Source of the DNA: a bacterium
GTDB taxonomy: Bacteria > Sysuimicrobiota > Sysuimicrobiia > Sysuimicrobiales > Humicultoraceae
Direction of reading: 5' to 3'
DNA length: 64,000 nt
Assembly (NCBI GenBank): GCA_041497675.1
Contig: JBGQGY010000002.1
Coordinates: 18,392 to 82,391, forward strand
In this document: positions 9,001-39,000 of the stretch, piece after piece
Numbering within the stretch: position 1 is the stretch's first letter
Layout of the letters: every line of letters starts with the position of its first letter
Program-made: the position numbers

Positions 9001-12000
9001 ACGCGGATGTCGGCCTCTTGGTCGAGCAGAGCCCGGAGTCCGGATCGAACCAGACACTGGTCTTCAACGAGCAGGACGCTGATCACACAGATTCTCCAAC
9101 TCTCATTTTACGCGCCCTTGCGCGCTTCGACTCGCCGGATCGGGAGGGCGATCAGCACCCGCGTACCCCGGCCGGACTGCGAGCGGAGGACGAGCGTACC
9201 TCCAAGCCTCGCGAGCCGTTCTTGCATCGTCATCAATCCGAACGAGAGCCTGCGGGCGTCGATACGCAGCGCCCGCGCCACGTCGAACCCCACCCCGTCG
9301 TCGCGCACCGTGACTTCAAACGCATCTCCTCTGACTCGCCCGTGCACTTCGACGTGCTTTGCCGACGAATGCCGGTAGACGTTGGCCAGGGCTTCGTTGA
9401 TGACCTGGAACACCTCGTCGGCGGTGGTCTCATCGAGGACCGTATCCGGAGCGCGCCACCGCAGCGAGCACGTCAGCCCGCGCGTCCGCTCCAACCGTGA
9501 CAGCGCTTCTTTCACGCGCTCTTCCAACGTTGCCTCTGGATGCGCGACCCGCAGGTTGCGGATCAGCGCCCGCATTTGCCGGATGGCCTGCTCCAGCTCA
9601 GCTTCAAGACCGGTCAGGGTCTTGGTCGAACCCCGCCGCCCGCCCGCGCGCACAAGCCGCAGGTGCAGCATGATGCCGGAGAGCAACTGCAGCGGACCGT
9701 CATGGATCTCACGGGCTACGCGGTCGCGCACCTCGCTGGTTGTGCTGGCCTCCGTGTGGCGGCGGATCCGCGCTTGCTCGACGCGTCCCACGCTTGCCTG
9801 GACCGCCAGGAGGGCTGCCAAATACCGGTCCGGGGGCGCGACGGGCGAAGACGAAAACAGACCGAGCGCGCCAAACGCACCGCTACCGGCCAATACGGGG
9901 AGTATCACACCGCGCCGGACGGGCTGGCGCAGCGGTCGGTCGCGGCTGGCGAGTTCGATCGGGCGCTTGCGTTGAATGATCTCGGCGTGCCAGCGCTGGA
10001 GCAGCCGTGCCGAGGGCCAGACTGCCTGTGCCGGATGTCGGATTTCGAGGAAGTCGGTTGGGCCGTCGGGAAGCCGCAGCACAGCGACCTCGGCGCCTGA
10101 CAGCGCGGCGGCCTCGCGTACGGCCGACGCGAGGAACGCTGTCTCATCACTACCCGGGGTCGCGCGGGCGATCCGGCTGAAAGCCGCGAAGACCTCCTCA
10201 GGCACGTGACGCTGTCCTCCGGTTGGACCTGGGCCTGCGAACAAGGTTCCAGGATGATGAATATCTAGTCGGAATGCCAGCGACATGACCCTCCGGCAAT
10301 ATCTATTATGCCCATCGTGAGGACTTCTAGACCCGACCGGACTACGCCGCTCGGAGGAGTGACTAGGCGGCTCGAAACGTGCCTGCATCCCCCCGTGGCG
10401 GTGCACCACCGGCCGGGGTGCCGTTGGACCAGCATAGGGCCTCGGCGCGTCGGGGGAAAGGCCCGGGGTGGTCTCCCGGCCGGGCGGCGCCCCTACTTAC
10501 GAGCATAGACGTTCACGTGCAGCGGAAACCGCGGATCGGCCCAATCCAGGTCGGCGCGCGAGGCGTCCTCGATCGCGTTGCGATTCGCAGCGCAAAACGC
10601 GGCGATCGGGTTCCCGTGAATCGAGATGCTCACTTCAGAGAACGGTGCCAGCAGCAGCCGGAGCGAGTCTTCGGTGAACCGCCAGTAGTCGCCGGGGAAC
10701 CCGTTGCGTGGAGCCGTGAGGCTGACACGGGGTACGGTCATCAACAGCAGACCGCCCGGCGTGAGTACGCGGTGGATCTCGGCAGCCGCAGCAAAGGGAT
10801 CGGGCACGAGGAGCAGCACCTGGGTACAGACGATGCAGTCGAAGCTCGCGTCGGTTACCTGCGGCATCTTCTGGACGTCGGCGACGATCGTGACGTGCTC
10901 ACCCGACGTCAGGCTCATGATATCGTACCGCTCGACGCGCGCCGGATCGAAGTACGCTTTGTAGTCGGGCCACCCGAACTCAAGGATGCGGCCCCGCACT
11001 TCGTGTGCATGGGAACGGATGAAGGTCCCGCTGTAGTACCGGTTGACCGGCGTCCCGTAGTCGAACCCCCGGCCCTGAGAAAGCGGGAGCACGCGGCAGC
11101 GGTAGAGCATCCTGAGCCACCGCACGGTGCATCGCGCGAGCAGGCGCCGGCCCCAATGCCACGCGGAAAGCCGCAGTTCCCGGGTCACGTAAGAACTGTT
11201 CCCAAGCCCGTTCGGCTCCAGGCCGCCGCGGCCGACCCCGCCGGGCAGGGTGTGACAGGGAGGGATGGATCTTTCGCGCAGAGAAGTCCGTTCTTATAGA
11301 GGGCAATGCGAGGGGTGAACCTGCTCAGGCTGTGCCTGGCCGTCGCCCTGTGCGGCGGCCTTGTCGTCCCGCGCGCGGGCGCCGGACCGGGCGGTTTGCT
11401 CACCCCTGTCATTGTCTACGTGCCCGAGGAGTTCCATACCGGTGGCGCGTATACCGCGATCCAAGCCAGCGCGGATGGCCGGGTCTATATCGGGACGACA
11501 ATCTATGACGGGTACGCGCACTTGCTCGCGTTTTCTGCGGCCTCGGGGCGGTTCGAGAACCTGGTGAACGTCGGGGTGGTCACCGGCGAGCGCACCCCCG
11601 GACCGTACGCCCAGGCCAAGATCCATACGAAGCCGGCCATCGCGCCCGACGGCCGTGTCTACGTCGGCACCAAGTCCGGCAAGCCGGCCCGTGAAGCGCG
11701 CTGGCAAGAGAACTATCCCGGCGGCCATCTGCTCGTCTACGATCCGCGGGCCGGGACTACCACCGATCTCGGCATCATCAAACCAAAGGTCAGCATCATC
11801 GCCGTGGGGGTCGACCCCTCGCGCGGCATCGTGTATGCCCTCACCGATCCGGACAGCCATCTTGTGACCTATGATCCGCGAACCCGACAGTTTGTCGACC
11901 GCGGGCAGTTTGGACCGCCCGGGCAGGATCCGACGCGCTATCTGGTCGTGCTCGCCAACGGCGACGCCTTCCACCGGTGGGACACCAGCACCATGTCGAG

Positions 12001-36000: not shown

Positions 36001-39000
36001 ACTCCCGAATCGCGCAGCGACACCAGGGTGGCGTCAAGACCATTCTTCCGTACCGCATCCTCAAGACTGTCGGGCGTCCAGCCCGCCCAGGTCAGTAGAT
36101 GATAGTACGGGCTCCGAGAATTCTGCCAAATCGTCTCGCGCACCACCTGGAGGAACAGCTGATCCCGCATGGTGATGCGGCGGCGAAGGAGCGCTCGGGC
36201 GGTTTCGGGCGTGCACGGTCGGCGCATCAGCCCCGCGAGGCCCTGGGCCATCTGTACCGCCTGTCTGAAATCAGACGTCAGCGACACAACGCTATCCTTC
36301 AGCAGCCTGGTCTGGGCTACTGGGAGCCTCGTGCGGAGTCCGGCCAAGCCACTTGCGGCGAAGTCCTGATATCGCGACCCCGGCCCAGCGCCGGGCGGCC
36401 ACGACCGCCACGACGCGCGGCCGGCGCCTCCAGACGACCAACGCCTTGTCACGACGCAGGGCGGCGGCCCACCGCTGTTGCTTGTACGCCTCCCCACCGC
36501 GCAGGAAGTCGAACTCCGTAGCACCTTCGGCGATCGCTTCCTGGATCGCATGCCCCAACAAAAGCGTGCTGACGCCAAAGCGGGACCAGCTCGGATCGAA
36601 TCCGGTCTGCAAATCTACCACTCGACCCCCCAGGCTCAGACAGTACTCGGCCGCCACGTATCGGTCCCCCACACGCATGAGGTACAAGCGCAGCCAGCCG
36701 CGCTCCGCGGCCCGCTCCAGGAATACCCGGTGAAAAGCGAGTGATCGCCGGGTCGTAAATGCGCTGCGGTCTCCCGCGACCTGCCGGCGTTCATCATGGA
36801 GCCGAAGCAACACATCCCACGCATGTGCCAGTTCTTCTGTCCGTTGCACCCGCTCGACGACCACCTCACCGTGCTCCCGCAGGCGCCGCCACCGGCGCCC
36901 CAAGTCCTTCCGAGCATCCGAGCGCAGCGTGCGTAGGAAATCCTCCCACGATCCCGGAAGCGAAATGTACGGGCAAATGTCGGCCGTCCTCGATACGCTC
37001 GCAAGCCCTCGGCCGACGGCGACAACAGTGGTTTCCAACCACTGCGCGGTCTCGTCTTCAAGTCTTGGGAACTCCAGAACGTCCCACCGGGGATCTGACA
37101 GCAACCACTCCGCGACCGCACTACGCACCTCTGCCTCGGCACCGCGGCGTACCAGCACGGCCAAATGATCAGCGCCGACACCGACCCCCATGAAACGCAT
37201 CGTGCGCACCGCGAGCGGTCCGCGGGCCGACGTGTCACAGAGCGGCGCAAGACCTACCAACTTGCCATCGGTCTCCCGCCGCAACAGCAACACCCTAGGC
37301 CTCGTCCCCCTGGGGCTGAACTCTTTGAGCCATATCGTCATCCATTCCCATGACAGGAACACGCTGGGGCGCGCCGTGTCCAGCAACAAATCTGTCCACT
37401 CCTCGCGGAGCCCGACCACCTTTTCGAGCTCGGTGACGACAGCGACAGTGAGCCCATCCACTCGCGCCACCTCGCGTCTGTCAAGCACCGCCGCCACGGC
37501 CGTCATGCGCGGGAAATTTTGGGCCAAGTAGTGCGCGAGCCAAGATAGGCGATCCACATGAAGACATATGGAAAGATCTGCACGCGCTGACGGGCGATGA
37601 TCCCGAAGTTGGTGACTGCCGAAAAGATGTAGATGAACATGAGAGCGTAGAGCACCGATAGCAGCAGGAAACTGTTGCGCGGCGATCCCGAGATTGCGGC
37701 GATCACACTCCGGCGACGATACACGATGAGGCTCAAAAGGGCCAAGCTTTCGAGCGCCGTCACCATCGCGTTCATGTTGTGCGCCTCCCACGGGAACGGC
37801 CGAAACAGGACAGTCGGGATCAAGATAGCCAGCCCGAGGGGACTCGTGGTGTCGATCGGCGTGAACGCTGATCCGCCGTGCTCTCCTTCGCCGAGGATGT
37901 GTCGCTGCTGTCCGGTGTATCCCTGCCGCTCGCTGATGAAACCCTGCACTTCCTGCGCGTCCAACCCCTCCAGGCCCACGACCCGGCTCGCGACTACGGC
38001 GATCCCAACCGCGAATACCGTAACCAAGATGAGCCCAACGACCTTGACGAACGGCGCCAAGCTCCCCTGCCTCACCGGACGAACAACGAGCGACATCATC
38101 AGGGCCACGCCAAAGATGGCGGCGAGATGGGCCCTAATAGCCAGCATGGCTCCGATCCCCAGCAACAGACCCACGACGCTCCCGATGTCAAACCGTCTCA
38201 GTGACCGCGCCACCCCATAGGCCGCGGTCCCTCCTGCCAGCATCATCACGGCATCCTTGCCCAGGCTGCTGGTCCAGAGCAGCAGAGACGGGAACAGCAA
38301 CACGAGGATCATGTAGAGCCGGTGGTTACCCTGCGGGAACGCCGTCACGAACGCCTTGTAGAAGAGCAGCATCCCGATCAGGCCAAGCCAGGCCCAGATA
38401 TACGACACTCCCACAAGCGTCGGGCCGGTGAGCAGATACGCGAAAGCGGTGAGAAGGCGCACGGCGAAACTCCCGGTGAACCGCCCGGTTAACGGCCATT
38501 CGCCCGCCGCCAGCGAGTACGACATCTCCTCCCCCGCCGCGCTATACACGTAGGCATCCGCCAGCAGGCCAGTAGCGAAACGGAAGTGGACGGCAAATAT
38601 CTTAAGAGCAAAACTTGCCATGAGCAGCCAAAACAGCAGATCCGCATCTGCATCATTTCGTGCGGCGATGCGGAAGATCACAATAGAAAGCAAGACGAGG
38701 ACCACCAGGACGACGCTCATCCGCATAGTCGCGATGTCGTTACCACCGACAAAGATGCCGGCAACCCACGCCACACTCGCGAGCAGCGGGATCGCGACGA
38801 TCAAACGCCGCAGCTGACTTCGATCTATCGCCAGGGTGCTCATCTGTGCGTCCTCACAGCCTCTTCAGCATTGAGCGCAACACCTAACCCGGGAGCCCAG
38901 TCACGCCCTGGGGGCCGGGACCATAGTCGTGCGTGTCGCCAGAGATCTCCCCAGCACGCGCGAGCTCGACGAGCTCCTGGAGCAGGACGCCGTCGTTCAA

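Follow-up and report, generated by a model that had tools for sequence, protein, structure and literature searches.

A putative proline-to-(halo)pyrrole carrier cassette within a Wzx-type surface-glycan locus

Relation to described pyrrole-transfer systems

CloN7 and CouN7 are described as transferring a carrier-borne pyrrolyl group to a sugar hydroxyl, a precedent for the transfer proposed below, and the clorobiocin system uses a second carrier, of the CloN1 type, which is absent from the locus considered here. The enzymes that turn proline into a chlorinated pyrrole in antibiotic pathways here stand within an operon for a surface sugar polymer in the MAG of an uncultured soil or sediment bacterium (Armatimonadota), which suggests an undescribed bacterial glycan decoration. 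An earlier note on this DNA had placed a carrier-bound (halo)pyrrole cassette in a glycan locus, and Pfam and NCBIfam searches of the 53 ORFs of the window (the whole analysed stretch of 64,000 nucleotides) bear this out. The points that are new here are the predicted GT-C fold of DUF6798, the unusual site pattern and predicted heterodimer of the Hyd1 and Hyd2 proteins, a genome that has no condensation domain, second dedicated carrier or exosortase, and the optional nature of the halogenase.

Gene organization

The cassette lies at 13737-25064 on the minus strand and consists of a proline ligase, an 88-aa carrier, a prolyl-carrier dehydrogenase and a flavin halogenase, together with a Wzx flippase, two alpha/beta-fold proteins (Hyd1 and Hyd2) and two DUF6798 proteins. 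In window coordinates, positions 11306 and 38843 are ORF ends.

11306..12496, plus strand: g153, unknown protein with hydrophobic N-terminus (residues 3-21; possibly secreted), divergent from the locus and at its edge
12493..13722, plus strand: g154, unknown protein with hydrophobic N-terminus
13737..15392, minus strand: DUF6798a, predicted GT-C-fold membrane glycosyltransferase (PF20604)
15413-16726, minus strand: FADH2-dependent halogenase (Trp_halogenase, 101 bits)
16772..17725, minus strand: Hyd1, alpha/beta-fold protein with putative nucleophile Cys137 (hydr1_PEP TIGR03100, 56 bits, cutoff 168)
17753..19276, minus strand: Wzx/MOP flippase within the cassette (Polysacc_synt_3, 261 bits; NF007773, 230 bits, cutoff 273)
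19308..19574, minus strand: 88-aa carrier protein, Ser in VDSMGLL (nearest solved relatives are peptidyl carrier proteins)
19628..21223, minus strand: stand-alone L-proline-carrier ligase, 531 aa (TIGR01733, 409 bits, cutoff 317)
21220..22365, minus strand: prolyl-carrier dehydrogenase, FAD, ACAD fold (NCBIfam and solved relatives)
22391..23287, minus strand: Hyd2, alpha/beta-fold protein without nucleophile, Arg134 (hydr2_PEP TIGR03101, 112 bits, cutoff 203)
23319..25064 as ORF, 23319..24956 with inferred start, minus strand: DUF6798b, predicted second GT-C-type protein (PF20604)
24953-25729, minus strand: SAM methyltransferase (Pfam/NCBIfam)
25731-26528, minus strand: GT2 resembling polyprenyl-phosphate sugar synthases (Pfam/NCBIfam)
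26606..30192, minus strand: two PMT_2/ArnT-like GT-C glycosyltransferases (Pfam)
30196..34362, minus strand: two GDSL/SGNH proteins and a NodU/CmcH-type carbamoyltransferase (Pfam/NCBIfam)
34677..37791, minus strand: CapK/PaaK-like unknown protein and FemAB-like GNAT, Acetyltransf_6 (Pfam/NCBIfam)
37503..38843, minus strand: polytopic membrane protein, about 10 segments, Wzy-polymerase candidate (hydropathy)
40080..48452, minus strand: PseB/PglF-like 4,6-dehydratase, deacetylase, GT4, GNAT, second Wzx, LegC/PseC-like aminotransferase and initiating phosphoglycosyl transferase (Pfam/NCBIfam)

The operon is tight, with intergenic gaps of -4 to 53 bp and gaps of 27-31 bp around the Wzx gene. The GTG start of the ligase shares 4 bp with the dehydrogenase stop, and DUF6798b probably starts at the ATG at 24956, overlapping the methyltransferase stop. 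The genes at 40080..48452, beyond the 11306..38843 range, are the remaining repeat-unit machinery. Each GDSL/SGNH protein is membrane-anchored by a single N-terminal segment, as judged by hydropathy. The CapK/PaaK-like protein and the FemAB-like GNAT stay next to Hyd2 in the related genome G012, while the polytopic protein, which matches no family, co-occurs with Wzx in G006 and G014. Neither g153 nor g154 matched a Pfam or NCBIfam family; g153 is retained beside the locus in G006 (77%), G012 (66%) and G034 (54%), and g154 is retained in G001 (82%), G012 (69%) and G034 (46%).

The earlier note reported no NRPS condensation or PKS gene nearby. Indeed, no Condensation or ketosynthase domain is matched among the 53 ORFs, and the genome as a whole (98.6% complete) has neither; it is likewise devoid of exosortase and of a second dedicated carrier.

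Activation and oxidation of proline

Among solved structures, the ligase has its top single-domain match in the L-proline carrier ligase 6o6e (333 bits). Its specificity code, DLLYIALVCK, agrees at seven of eight internal positions with the stand-alone L-Pro pattern, given as L(L/F)YLALVC in PMC3874040, and this pattern or its Ile variant is present in 114 of 123 members of the ligase family. The carrier scores 19.1 bits against PF00550, slightly under the cutoff, and matches 2my5 (38.7 bits) and PigG (32.3 bits). Its Ser aligns with a residue at which 2my5 and 2my6, nearly the same elsewhere, have Ser and Ala, respectively. The sole PPTase of the genome is a short AcpS-type enzyme, which was counted against the pathway proposed below.

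For the dehydrogenase, the NCBIfam PigA model is on top with 466 bits (cutoff 500), followed by RedW with 420 and acryloyl-CoA reductase with 332. Against solved relatives, the prolyl-ACP dehydrogenase 4irn scores 431 bits, butyryl-CoA dehydrogenase 330 and PigA (5zw0) 327, so that prolyl-carrier dehydrogenases outscore ordinary ACADs by about 100 bits or more. That the genes form a carrier-bound proline-to-(halo)pyrrole cassette is strongly supported at the sequence level, since the ligase code matches the L-Pro pattern and the dehydrogenase stands far above ordinary ACADs.

The nearest solved relative of the dehydrogenase is AnaB, which reportedly halts after a two-electron oxidation. A pyrroline-carboxyl product has to be considered for this reason, and the transferred group would then be dehydroprolyl, at least in relatives that have no halogenase. 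This alternative is favoured by the higher score of 4irn relative to PigA among solved structures and by four of the eight core-bearing genomes that lack the halogenase. It is nevertheless unlikely, because the PigA model is the best match in NCBIfam, the flavin halogenase gene here is translationally close to that of the carrier, and 23 of the 80 loci with ligase, dehydrogenase and carrier, across all partner classes, also have a halogenase of some kind. A flavin halogenase requires an electron-rich ring. The dehydrogenase step would be a four-electron, rather than a two-electron, oxidation.

The halogenase

Reading of the sequence and its alignments gives the halogenase motifs GGGPAGS, the Lys in FIKKAGG, GWSWHIP and FVDPIFSIG. 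The nearest solved relatives are CmlS (169 bits), 8zop (156), CndH (151) and PltA (128), with RadH, ChlB4, 5buk and 5bva also matched. These solved relatives agree with the earlier note, which named the carrier-substrate enzymes CmlS, CndH, PltA, Mpy16 and Bmp2, as do those of the ligase, carrier and dehydrogenase. CmlS and CndH outscore PltA, a point against the pathway proposed below. The halogenation site and the halide, Cl or Br, are presumptive.

Among 40 relatives, halogenase orthologues (67-80% identical) occur in G001, G006 and G012 only, where the cassette is syntenic and the set remains together despite shuffling of gene order, which matches the earlier count of three other genomes in three genera. 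The halogenase is an optional, add-on tailoring step of a wider core.

Hyd1, Hyd2 and the DUF6798 proteins

Hyd1 (AF2 pLDDT 81) has a Cys at position 137 that is invariant in 42 of 42 sequences and, in alignments with solved hydrolases, takes the place of their catalytic Ser. The family has no invariant His, the corresponding position being Asn292, so catalysis by Hyd1 is only putative. In Hyd2, Arg134 occupies the elbow and is invariant in 34 of 34 sequences. Hydropathy indicates no membrane segment in either protein, and fold searches return generic hydrolases only. The two are predicted to form one heterodimer: the complex score is 0.91, compared with 0.02 for the best control. Of the solved complexes, 116 of 157 attain the mark applied, as do 2 of 215 mismatched pairs; this calibration is only approximate here, because the alignments behind the complex model were made for the present analysis. 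At least 86% of the contacts are common to the runs, and partner pLDDT is at least 87. Such a Cys nucleophile without a conserved His, an Arg at the nucleophile position of the second protein and a predicted heterodimer do not fit the CloN2/CloN7-like pair that had been proposed. Hyd1 and Hyd2 would together be the transferase, with Cys137 as the proposed acyl-S-enzyme carrier.

In the AF2 model of DUF6798a (pLDDT 92.3, pTM 0.92), the first 32 Foldseek matches in the PDB are all GT-C proteins: PglB, STT3, DPY19, EmbB, AftA, ALG9/12 and ArnT. DUF6798b is 33-40% identical to DUF6798a-type orthologues. Both are predicted GT-C glycosyltransferases rather than acyl-transfer parts.

Proposed pathway

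The locus is read here as building a Wzx-dependent surface glycan that bears a proline-derived aromatic acyl group, with a probability of about 0.55. The ligase would adenylate L-proline and attach it to the phosphopantetheine arm of the small carrier, and the FAD dehydrogenase would convert the prolyl-S-carrier into the pyrrolyl-2-carboxyl-S-carrier, to which the FADH2-dependent halogenase may add Cl or Br while the pyrrole is still carrier-bound. Thiol-thioester exchange would shift the acyl group to Cys137 of Hyd1, which would act in a heterodimer whose other subunit, Hyd2, is non-catalytic. The putative acceptor is a repeat-unit sugar, linked to a nucleotide or to undecaprenyl diphosphate, which would receive the group on a hydroxyl or an amino function, and the transfer would take place in the cytoplasm. 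The Wzx of the cassette would then flip the decorated unit, and GT-C enzymes, including both DUF6798 proteins, would extend it with sugars on the outside.

The earlier interpretation is partly supported: the (halo)pyrrole carrier cassette stands on the ligase code and the dehydrogenase scores, and the reading of the hydrolase-fold proteins as a CloN2/CloN7-like enzyme pair falls. Transfer of the acyl group to a glycan or glycolipid of the surface has only circumstantial support, from the missing NRPS/PKS partner, the tight operon with Wzx, the glycan enrichment across phyla and the alternative neighbours of acyltransferase class.

Occurrence and glycan context

The trio of ligase, dehydrogenase and carrier also has a glycan context in G011, G014 and G018, and in the cultured Microvirga sp. 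VF16 it lies within an EPS locus on plasmid pMVF16-2. Across several phyla, at least two glycan marker families occur in 28 of 54 long trio loci, compared with 39 of 455 background windows (8.6%), an enrichment of about six-fold. The background windows come from one genome, and loci of related lineages do not count as independent.

This enrichment bears on the alternative that the hydrolase pair is a thioesterase and the cassette makes a free, diffusible small molecule, either (halo)pyrrole-2-carboxylic acid itself or a compound simply derived from it, with the glycan co-location due to co-regulation or chance. The alpha/beta-hydrolase superfamily membership of Hyd1 and Hyd2, whose nearest structures are esterases and lipases, is in keeping with release, as are the presumptive nature of the acceptor and the 43 of 80 ligase loci, many on short contigs, that have neither glycan nor NRPS/PKS markers. 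A free product is nonetheless improbable, given the glycan enrichment, the poor fit of both proteins to a hydrolytic triad, the closely spaced Wzx gene within the cassette, and partners elsewhere that belong to sugar or glycolipid acyltransferase classes, with no hydrolase.

In the 80 trio loci, the hydrolase pair (14) and an LbH acyltransferase (23) never occur together, and AT3 is found in four. The partner type follows the ligase clades, with 5 label changes compared with a shuffled mean of 23.3, although related lineages do not count as independent. Elsewhere the partner belongs to an acyltransferase class for sugars or glycolipids, namely LbH, AT3 or, in halogenase-seeded metagenome loci, the LpxL type.

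The halogenase-seeded scan covers 70 metagenome loci, which group into 29 clusters when 90% identity is applied. Among the 70, a ligase is detected in 29, the remainder being mostly contigs under 5 kb, and the carrier gene is directly upstream of the halogenase in 44 of 53 testable loci (13 of 20 clusters). None of these loci has two or more glycan marker families, which counts against the glycan reading; one short locus has a Wzx match. Downstream of the halogenase, 20 of 33 testable loci (6 of 15 clusters) have an LpxL-type acyltransferase (PF03279), which NCBIfam puts closest to PIM acyltransferase and LpxL/LpxP. These enzymes argue for a membrane glycolipid or lipid anchor, such as a lipid A-like molecule or a phosphoglycolipid, as the acceptor in place of a polysaccharide repeat unit. 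For the present locus such an acceptor seems doubtful, since a PF03279-type acyltransferase is absent from the window and from all 80 ligase-seeded genome loci, and the neighbours in the window are Wzx, GT-C enzymes, other glycosyltransferases and an initiating transferase. As for the wider occurrence of the 7.9-kb cassette, an index search places 76-97% of its sampled words in 15 more sediment-metagenome runs.

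Organization of the locus

The cassette (ligase, carrier, dehydrogenase and halogenase) does lie in a glycan-assembly locus, as the earlier note had claimed. Pfam and NCBIfam scans of the 53 ORFs of the window delineate a single long minus-strand glycan locus that starts near 62 kb and extends to 13.7 kb. Both ends of the range claimed for the cassette region are ORF ends. At its low end the locus is bordered by genes for a histidine kinase, two response regulators and DnaK/ClpB chaperones. The part containing the cassette also encodes two alpha/beta-fold proteins of the hydrolase superfamily (Hyd1 and Hyd2) and two membrane proteins (DUF6798a and DUF6798b). 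Neighbouring genes in the run from GT2 to DUF6798a are separated by gaps of -4 to 53 bp; start and stop codons overlap by 4 bp between the dehydrogenase and ligase genes and between the methyltransferase and DUF6798b genes.

Genes of the cassette part of the locus, listed in transcription order (window coordinates)
1st: 25731-26528, minus strand, GT2, resembling polyprenyl-phosphate sugar synthases
2nd: 24953-25729, minus strand, methyltransferase
3rd: 23319-24956, minus strand, DUF6798b
4th: 22391-23287, minus strand, Hyd2
5th: 21220-22365, minus strand, dehydrogenase
6th: 19628-21223, minus strand, ligase
7th: 19308-19574, minus strand, carrier
8th: 17753-19276, minus strand, Wzx
9th: 16772-17725, minus strand, Hyd1
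10th: 15413-16726, minus strand, halogenase
11th: 13737-15392, minus strand, DUF6798a

An assembly chimera is unlikely because the 7.9-kb cassette recurs in 15 further sediment-metagenome runs, beyond the five possible source samples, with 76-97% of its sampled words present in the word index. Contigs with close homologues are labelled 'MAG: Armatimonadota bacterium'. No RNA run containing the cassette was found in the index search.

Two regions at the edge of the locus have their own features. The segment 10493-11188, between the histidine kinase gene and the plus-strand unknown g153, is better read on the minus strand as a 231-aa class I methyltransferase than as a 306-aa plus-strand ORF. 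At 11306-13722 the plus strand encodes two family-less proteins with hydrophobic N-termini, which are kept beside the locus in four relatives (G001, G006, G012 and G034).

The cassette enzymes

The four enzymes very probably constitute a system that converts proline to a (halo)pyrrole on a carrier. The ligase passes the NCBIfam amino-acid adenylation model with 409 bits (cutoff 317), and its top single-domain solved relative is an L-proline carrier ligase (6o6e, 333 bits). Its ten-position specificity code, read off the core motifs on a computed alignment with the spacing and the published consensus checked, is DLLYIALVCK. In a published comparison of proline adenylation domains, stand-alone L-proline domains have the internal pattern L(L/F)YLALVC, distinct from the VQ(Y/F)IAHVV of modular proline domains (PMC3874040). 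The ligase agrees with the stand-alone pattern at seven of the eight internal positions, the mismatch being an Ile for a Leu. Among 123 aligned members of the ligase family, 69 have the exact pattern and 45 have the Ile variant. The substrate of the adenylating enzyme, which was the main doubt in the earlier note, therefore appears from the code to be L-proline. The code strings themselves were not found in a literature search.

The dehydrogenase scores 466 bits against the PigA model (cutoff 500) and 420 bits against the RedW model (cutoff 650), which is 90-135 bits higher than its score against the best ordinary acyl-CoA model (332 bits). Comparison with solved structures gives the same order, with 431 bits for the prolyl-ACP dehydrogenase 4irn and 330 bits for butyryl-CoA dehydrogenase. 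No RedW-type locus above cutoff was found in 14 control genomes. The carrier is 88 residues long and scores 19.1 bits against PF00550 (cutoff 20.8); among solved structures it is closest to peptidyl carrier proteins, one of them PigG (32 bits). The Ser of its VDSMGLL motif aligns with a Ser of 2my5 that is an Ala in the near-identical 2my6.

Flavin-dependent halogenases are characterized by a GxGxxG motif, a WxWxIP motif and a catalytic lysine. The cassette halogenase (101 bits against PF04820, cutoff 21) has the nucleotide-binding glycines in GGGPAGS, the motif GWSWHIP, and a Lys in FIKKAGG that aligns with the K/R-K of CmlS, 8zop and CndH. Its solved relatives are, best first, CmlS, 8zop, CndH and RadH, then PltA, ChlB4, 5buk and 5bva; the last two are Mpy16 and Bmp2. 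Supporting activities encoded in the genome are a single flavin reductase and a single phosphopantetheinyl transferase, of the short AcpS type. Two more halogenase-like flavoproteins, 29-31% identical to that of the cassette, are encoded elsewhere in the genome on contigs C83 (6175-7164) and C97 (9955-10944).

Hyd1 and Hyd2

The NCBIfam models that the two proteins match, below cutoff, are those for the hydrolases 1 and 2 associated with exosortase A. The nucleophile elbow of Hyd1 carries a Cys in all 16 locus orthologues and all 42 database homologues, among them a protein named 'exosortase A-associated hydrolase 1' by JGI (P0174), which also has Cys137. In a profile search Cys137 aligns with the catalytic Ser of solved structures, and Asn292 occupies the position of their His. 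Hyd2 has Arg134 at its elbow in 34/34 homologues; in a wider set of 15 this residue is Arg, Leu, Asn or Gln. No invariant His occurs among the homologues of either protein. With Cys137 or Arg134 in place of the Ser nucleophile and without a conserved His, neither protein fits a classical Ser-His-Asp hydrolase. No membrane segment was found in Hyd1 or Hyd2, and the Foldseek matches of Hyd1 are all esterases and lipases of a generic kind (TM about 0.5-0.57), none of them informative.

Structure prediction supports the binding of Hyd1 to Hyd2 as a heterodimer. The complex score is 0.91 (median of three runs) against 0.02 for the best control, with self-made alignments used in the present case. 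Among solved complexes 116 of 157 attain this mark, and among mismatched pairs 2 of 215 do. At least 86% of the contacts are common to the runs, and the partner pLDDT is at least 87. The predicted interface consists mostly of invariant residues of both families and abuts the loop of Hyd1 that would carry the His. The two proteins are read as one heterodimeric, Cys-dependent, cytoplasmic acyl-transfer unit, in which a thioester intermediate would form on Cys137 of Hyd1.

Absence of assembly-line partners and proposed acceptor

No condensation or ketosynthase domain is present among the 53 ORFs of the window, and no condensation domain (PF00668) was found in the whole genome, which is 98.6% complete. 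Its PF00550 carrier domains are limited to the fatty-acid ACP and the cassette carrier. Without a condensation domain or a further dedicated carrier, the genome can offer the cassette product no assembly line, and no second shuttle carrier such as clorobiocin biosynthesis uses. The most likely fate of the product is transfer by the Hyd1/Hyd2 unit onto a sugar of the surface glycan, and this whole chain is given a probability of roughly 55%.

A candidate for the acceptor step is N-acylation of an amino sugar. The locus holds a PseB/PglF-like dehydratase and a LegC/PseC-like aminotransferase, and at one surveyed locus (L032) the ligase, carrier and dehydrogenase, hereafter the trio, lie beside such genes. 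This step stays a candidate because DegT was flagged in just 3 of the 80 ligase loci surveyed.

Membrane proteins and other genes of the locus

The DUF6798 family has 1,131 representatives at E <= 0.001. A model built from a 72-sequence alignment (pLDDT 92.3) has GT-C enzymes as all of its top 32 Foldseek PDB matches, with TM scores of 0.28-0.50 and probabilities mostly of 0.97-1.00 (lowest 0.87). A protein atlas search returned DUF6798 clusters only. On this predicted structure, DUF6798 has the membrane fold of GT-C glycosyltransferases. Together with two PMT_2 proteins, the DUF6798 pair would bring the number of GT-C enzymes in the locus to four. By the same model, the DUF6798 proteins would be builders of the glycan and not movers of the acyl group, and the GT-C fold ruled them out as a membrane part of acyl transfer. 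In the relative G012, a UbiA-family prenyltransferase is encoded between the halogenase and DUF6798 (L012, 15639-16595); it may supply polyprenyl-phosphate sugar donors for the GT-C enzymes.

A membrane-anchored GDSL/SGNH protein and a NodU-type carbamoyltransferase adjoin each other at 30196-34362. This arrangement recurs in Terriglobia loci (L099, 13879-17164; L085, 13787-17082) and may represent a conserved O-carbamoylation or O-acylation pair. The GDSL/SGNH protein was rejected as the final outward acyltransferase, since it occurs with the trio in just 7/80 loci and pairs more with the carbamoyltransferase.

Two paralogous unknowns (34677-36578 and 49046-50674), about 55% alike by way of their G006 and G012 orthologues, have weak PaaK or AMP-binding matches. 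They are accompanied by a FemAB-like GNAT (36292-37791), an association suggesting that the locus carries out another, independent ligation of an acyl or aminoacyl group. Between the glycosyltransferase genes, the segment 52312-57943 encodes two family-III CoA-transferases, a MaoC-like hydratase, an SCP-x-type thiolase and a glyoxalase/dioxygenase, a CoA-thioester module that is odd content for a glycan operon.

Comparison with known systems

Proline-to-pyrrole cassettes and flavin halogenases are standard parts of antibiotic pathways. The enzyme set of the window is like that of PltF/PltL/PltE/PltA (pyoluteorin), PigI/PigG/PigA, RedM/RedO/RedW and CloN4/CloN5/CloN3. It shares with these type II pyrrole cassettes a stand-alone proline ligase with its code, a small carrier and a flavin halogenase beside the carrier, and it has a probable prolyl-carrier dehydrogenase of the ACAD fold. 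Unlike them, the window cassette is flanked by glycan-assembly genes, its genome has no ketosynthase, condensation domain or second carrier to act as recipient, and its halogenase scores closer to CmlS and CndH than to PltA.

In clorobiocin biosynthesis, CloN4, CloN5 and CloN3 make the pyrrolyl carrier and CloN2 moves the group to CloN1, while CloN7/CouN7 place the pyrrolyl group on the 3'-OH of the deoxysugar noviose in clorobiocin and coumermycin (PMC11218499 and PMC8748450). The likeness is that a carrier-bound pyrrolyl group goes to a sugar hydroxyl by a dedicated acyltransferase and without a condensation domain; the differences are that the acceptor is a small-molecule antibiotic and that the second carrier CloN1 is used, whereas the window has one carrier. 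The window also has a Cys-bearing and a dead alpha/beta-fold protein, predicted to form a heterodimer. In chemical terms the clorobiocin route is the nearest precedent, though for a small-molecule antibiotic.

The exosortase-A (PEP-CTERM) set comprises a ligase (TIGR03098), an ACP, hydrolase 1 (TIGR03100), hydrolase 2 (TIGR03101) and a PLP decarboxylase. Its models are the best or near-best families for the window ligase and both hydrolases, and it, too, combines a ligase and a carrier with a pair of dissimilar alpha/beta-fold proteins inside an exopolysaccharide locus. However, the window proteins score below the cutoffs (319 vs 592 for TIGR03098, 56 vs 168 for TIGR03100 and 112 vs 203 for TIGR03101), an ACAD and a halogenase stand in the place of the decarboxylase, and there is no exosortase in the genome (0 matches to PF09721). 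In its ligase/hydrolase architecture the exosortase-A set comes closest to the window cassette, which is not a member of it. In the literature searched, with subscription journals largely outside it, no publication was found on the function of the exosortase-linked set or on a pyrrole-2-carboxyl substituent of a polysaccharide.

Carrier-protein-dependent acylation of surface polymers is, to our knowledge, known mainly from D-alanylation. The Dlt system of teichoic acids (DltA/DltC/DltB/DltD) is alike in outline: an adenylating enzyme charges a small carrier with an amino acid, and the acyl group finally reaches a cell-surface polymer. However, the window ligase scores 277-280 bits against the DltA models, below the cutoffs of 476 and 560, and no counterpart of the MBOAT-type DltB is found among the 53 ORFs. 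Also unlike Dlt, the proposed pathway would oxidize and halogenate the acyl group on the carrier, and it is predicted to transfer the group in the cytoplasm. Among known ways to decorate a surface polymer by means of a carrier, Dlt D-alanylation comes closest, but its defining parts are absent from the window.

CmaE and SyrC use an active-site cysteine; Hyd1 would do the same. Together with CysB they are stand-alone transferases that take an aminoacyl group from a carrier onward (PMC8748450 and PMC7966384). They deliver it to an NRPS carrier domain, whereas the window's genome has no such domain.

Occurrence in relatives

Halogenase orthologues (67-80% identity) are present in three of 40 relatives (G001, G006 and G012), and these span three genera, the window's own genus counted. 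The next halogenase matches are at most 33-35% identical, with 35% reached only over short partial matches. Dehydrogenase orthologues (69-82%) are found in seven of the 40, namely the same three and G011, G014, G018 and G034, with the next matches at 44%. The 40 relatives include the unpublished G010 and G019, counted as rows without an orthologue.

In the three relatives with the halogenase, Hyd1, dehydrogenase, ligase, carrier, halogenase and DUF6798 are kept together even though the gene order is shuffled. Hyd2 is also part of the set in G006 and in G012, where the order is Hyd2-Hyd1-dehydrogenase-ligase-carrier-halogenase; it is not found on the 9.6-kb G001 contig, which stops inside the dehydrogenase gene. 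G014 has the order Hyd2-Hyd1-dehydrogenase-ligase-carrier without the halogenase, and its neighbours include a Wza-like exporter, a kinase, a NusG-like factor, UDP-glucose dehydrogenase, a sulfatase and a GT2. In G011 and G018 the dehydrogenase-ligase pair adjoins an ABC-2 exporter pair and a beta-helix protein. Since the core is present in relatives without the halogenase, halogenation would be an optional step on a wider core.

Occurrence across phyla

A ligase scan with one genome per species kept 80 loci, in which tblastn was used to look for the window's proteins, for export markers and for NRPS/PKS markers. Of these loci, 66 have the dehydrogenase and 65 a carrier, and all but a handful of the ligases have a proline-type code, including a Cuspidothrix issatschenkoi copy adjoining a PKS-type gene. 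At least two glycan marker families occur in 30/80 loci (28/54 of those of at least 15 kb). As background, the genome to which the window belongs reaches two glycan families in 39 of 455 stretches of 21.5 kb (8.6%), with the 64-kb window excluded; this control comes from a single genome, and the loci are phylogenetically related. NRPS/PKS markers occur in 10/80 loci, glycan and NRPS/PKS markers together in 3/80 and neither in 43/80, many of the last on short contigs. The trio thus appears as a recurrent module beyond one MAG, as its occurrence in Acidobacteriota, Actinomycetota, Chloroflexota, Armatimonadota and others suggests.

The partners of the trio, which are candidates for off-loading its product, differ. 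The hydrolase pair is present in 14/80 loci, an LbH acyltransferase within 4 kb in 23/80 (never in the same locus as the hydrolase pair), AT3 in 4/80, and KS or condensation domains in 10/80. The best matches of the LbH enzyme, all under the cutoffs, are acetyltransferases of the EpsC/CysE/WcaB/NeuD type. Terriglobia loci have the gene order Wzz, ATPase, unknown, LbH acyltransferase, dehydrogenase, ligase and carrier, followed by an initiating glycosylphosphotransferase, GDSL, carbamoyltransferase and GT4. In a ligase tree of 90 rows the partner classes fall in well-supported clades; the four partner labels require five changes against a shuffled mean of 23.3, and none of 200 shuffles is as low. 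Because these clades also track taxonomy, the tree demonstrates stable partnerships and not independent events. A flavin halogenase accompanies the trio in 23/80 loci, across every partner class.

Scanning metagenomes with the halogenase as seed yielded 70 loci, which fall into 29 clusters at 90% identity. A carrier gene ends at most 300 bp upstream of the halogenase in 44/53 testable loci (13/20 clusters), and the ligase, with the code DLFYLALVCK or DLFYIAWVCK, is found in 29/70 loci (7/11 clusters with enough upstream DNA). The LpxL-type neighbour reported in the earlier note is borne out, with a PF03279 lipid-A-type acyltransferase at most 2.5 kb after the halogenase in 20/33 testable loci (6/15 clusters). 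None of the 70 loci has two or more glycan marker families, and a Wzx match occurs in one short locus. The lineage with the LpxL-type acyltransferase points to glycolipid acylation.

The nearest plasmid-borne dehydrogenases are 55-57% identical to that of the window, and their loci were annotated in the present analysis. On plasmid pMVF16-2 of Microvirga sp. VF16, the carrier, ligase (DLFYLALVCK) and dehydrogenase lie inside an EPS locus with GT2, three GT4s, an initiating transferase, Wzz/GNVR, Wzy and Wza. On pSCL4 of Streptomyces clavuligerus the same trio lies in an NRPS/PKS cluster, so the trio serves both settings.

A broader reading, held tentatively and at somewhat under even odds, is that carrier-bound, often halogenated pyrrole-2-carboxyl serves bacteria as a widespread acyl decoration of their surface glycans and glycolipids that has so far gone unrecognised. 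The conserved trio would feed this decoration, and at least four unrelated classes of transferase would install it: the Cys-dependent alpha/beta heterodimer, LbH, AT3 and LpxL-type enzymes. By way of the heterodimer, the long-unexplained hydrolase 1/hydrolase 2 pair of the exosortase-A set would then gain its first function, that of a transferase moving acyl groups from a carrier to a glycan; curated models tie this pair to exopolysaccharide loci without a known role, and the broader reading would give it a mechanism. If true, this would add a new type of chemistry to the cell envelope, a glycan at the surface bearing a halogenated aromatic acyl group, which could alter hydrophobicity, recognition by phages and predators, and organohalogen cycling in soils and sediments. 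Microvirga sp. VF16 is a cultured carrier of the trio, which makes the question directly testable.

Several surveyed loci have distinctive features. In L095 (Anaerolineae; 11610-16877), three tandem flavin halogenases and a sulfotransferase directly follow the proline ligase, and two Na+/H+ exchanger genes precede this stretch. L030, on a contig labelled as a Microtetraspora MAG, has a ligase 66% identical to that of the window which groups with an Armatimonadota sequence in the tree, suggesting gene transfer or a mis-binned contig. In the halogenase-seeded loci L132 and L145 (11.3-16.3 kb), the LpxL-type acyltransferase is followed by an NMT1-like binding protein, SCO1/SenC and ABC transporter parts, and in L145 the ligase and carrier genes are separated by a DUF3179 gene.
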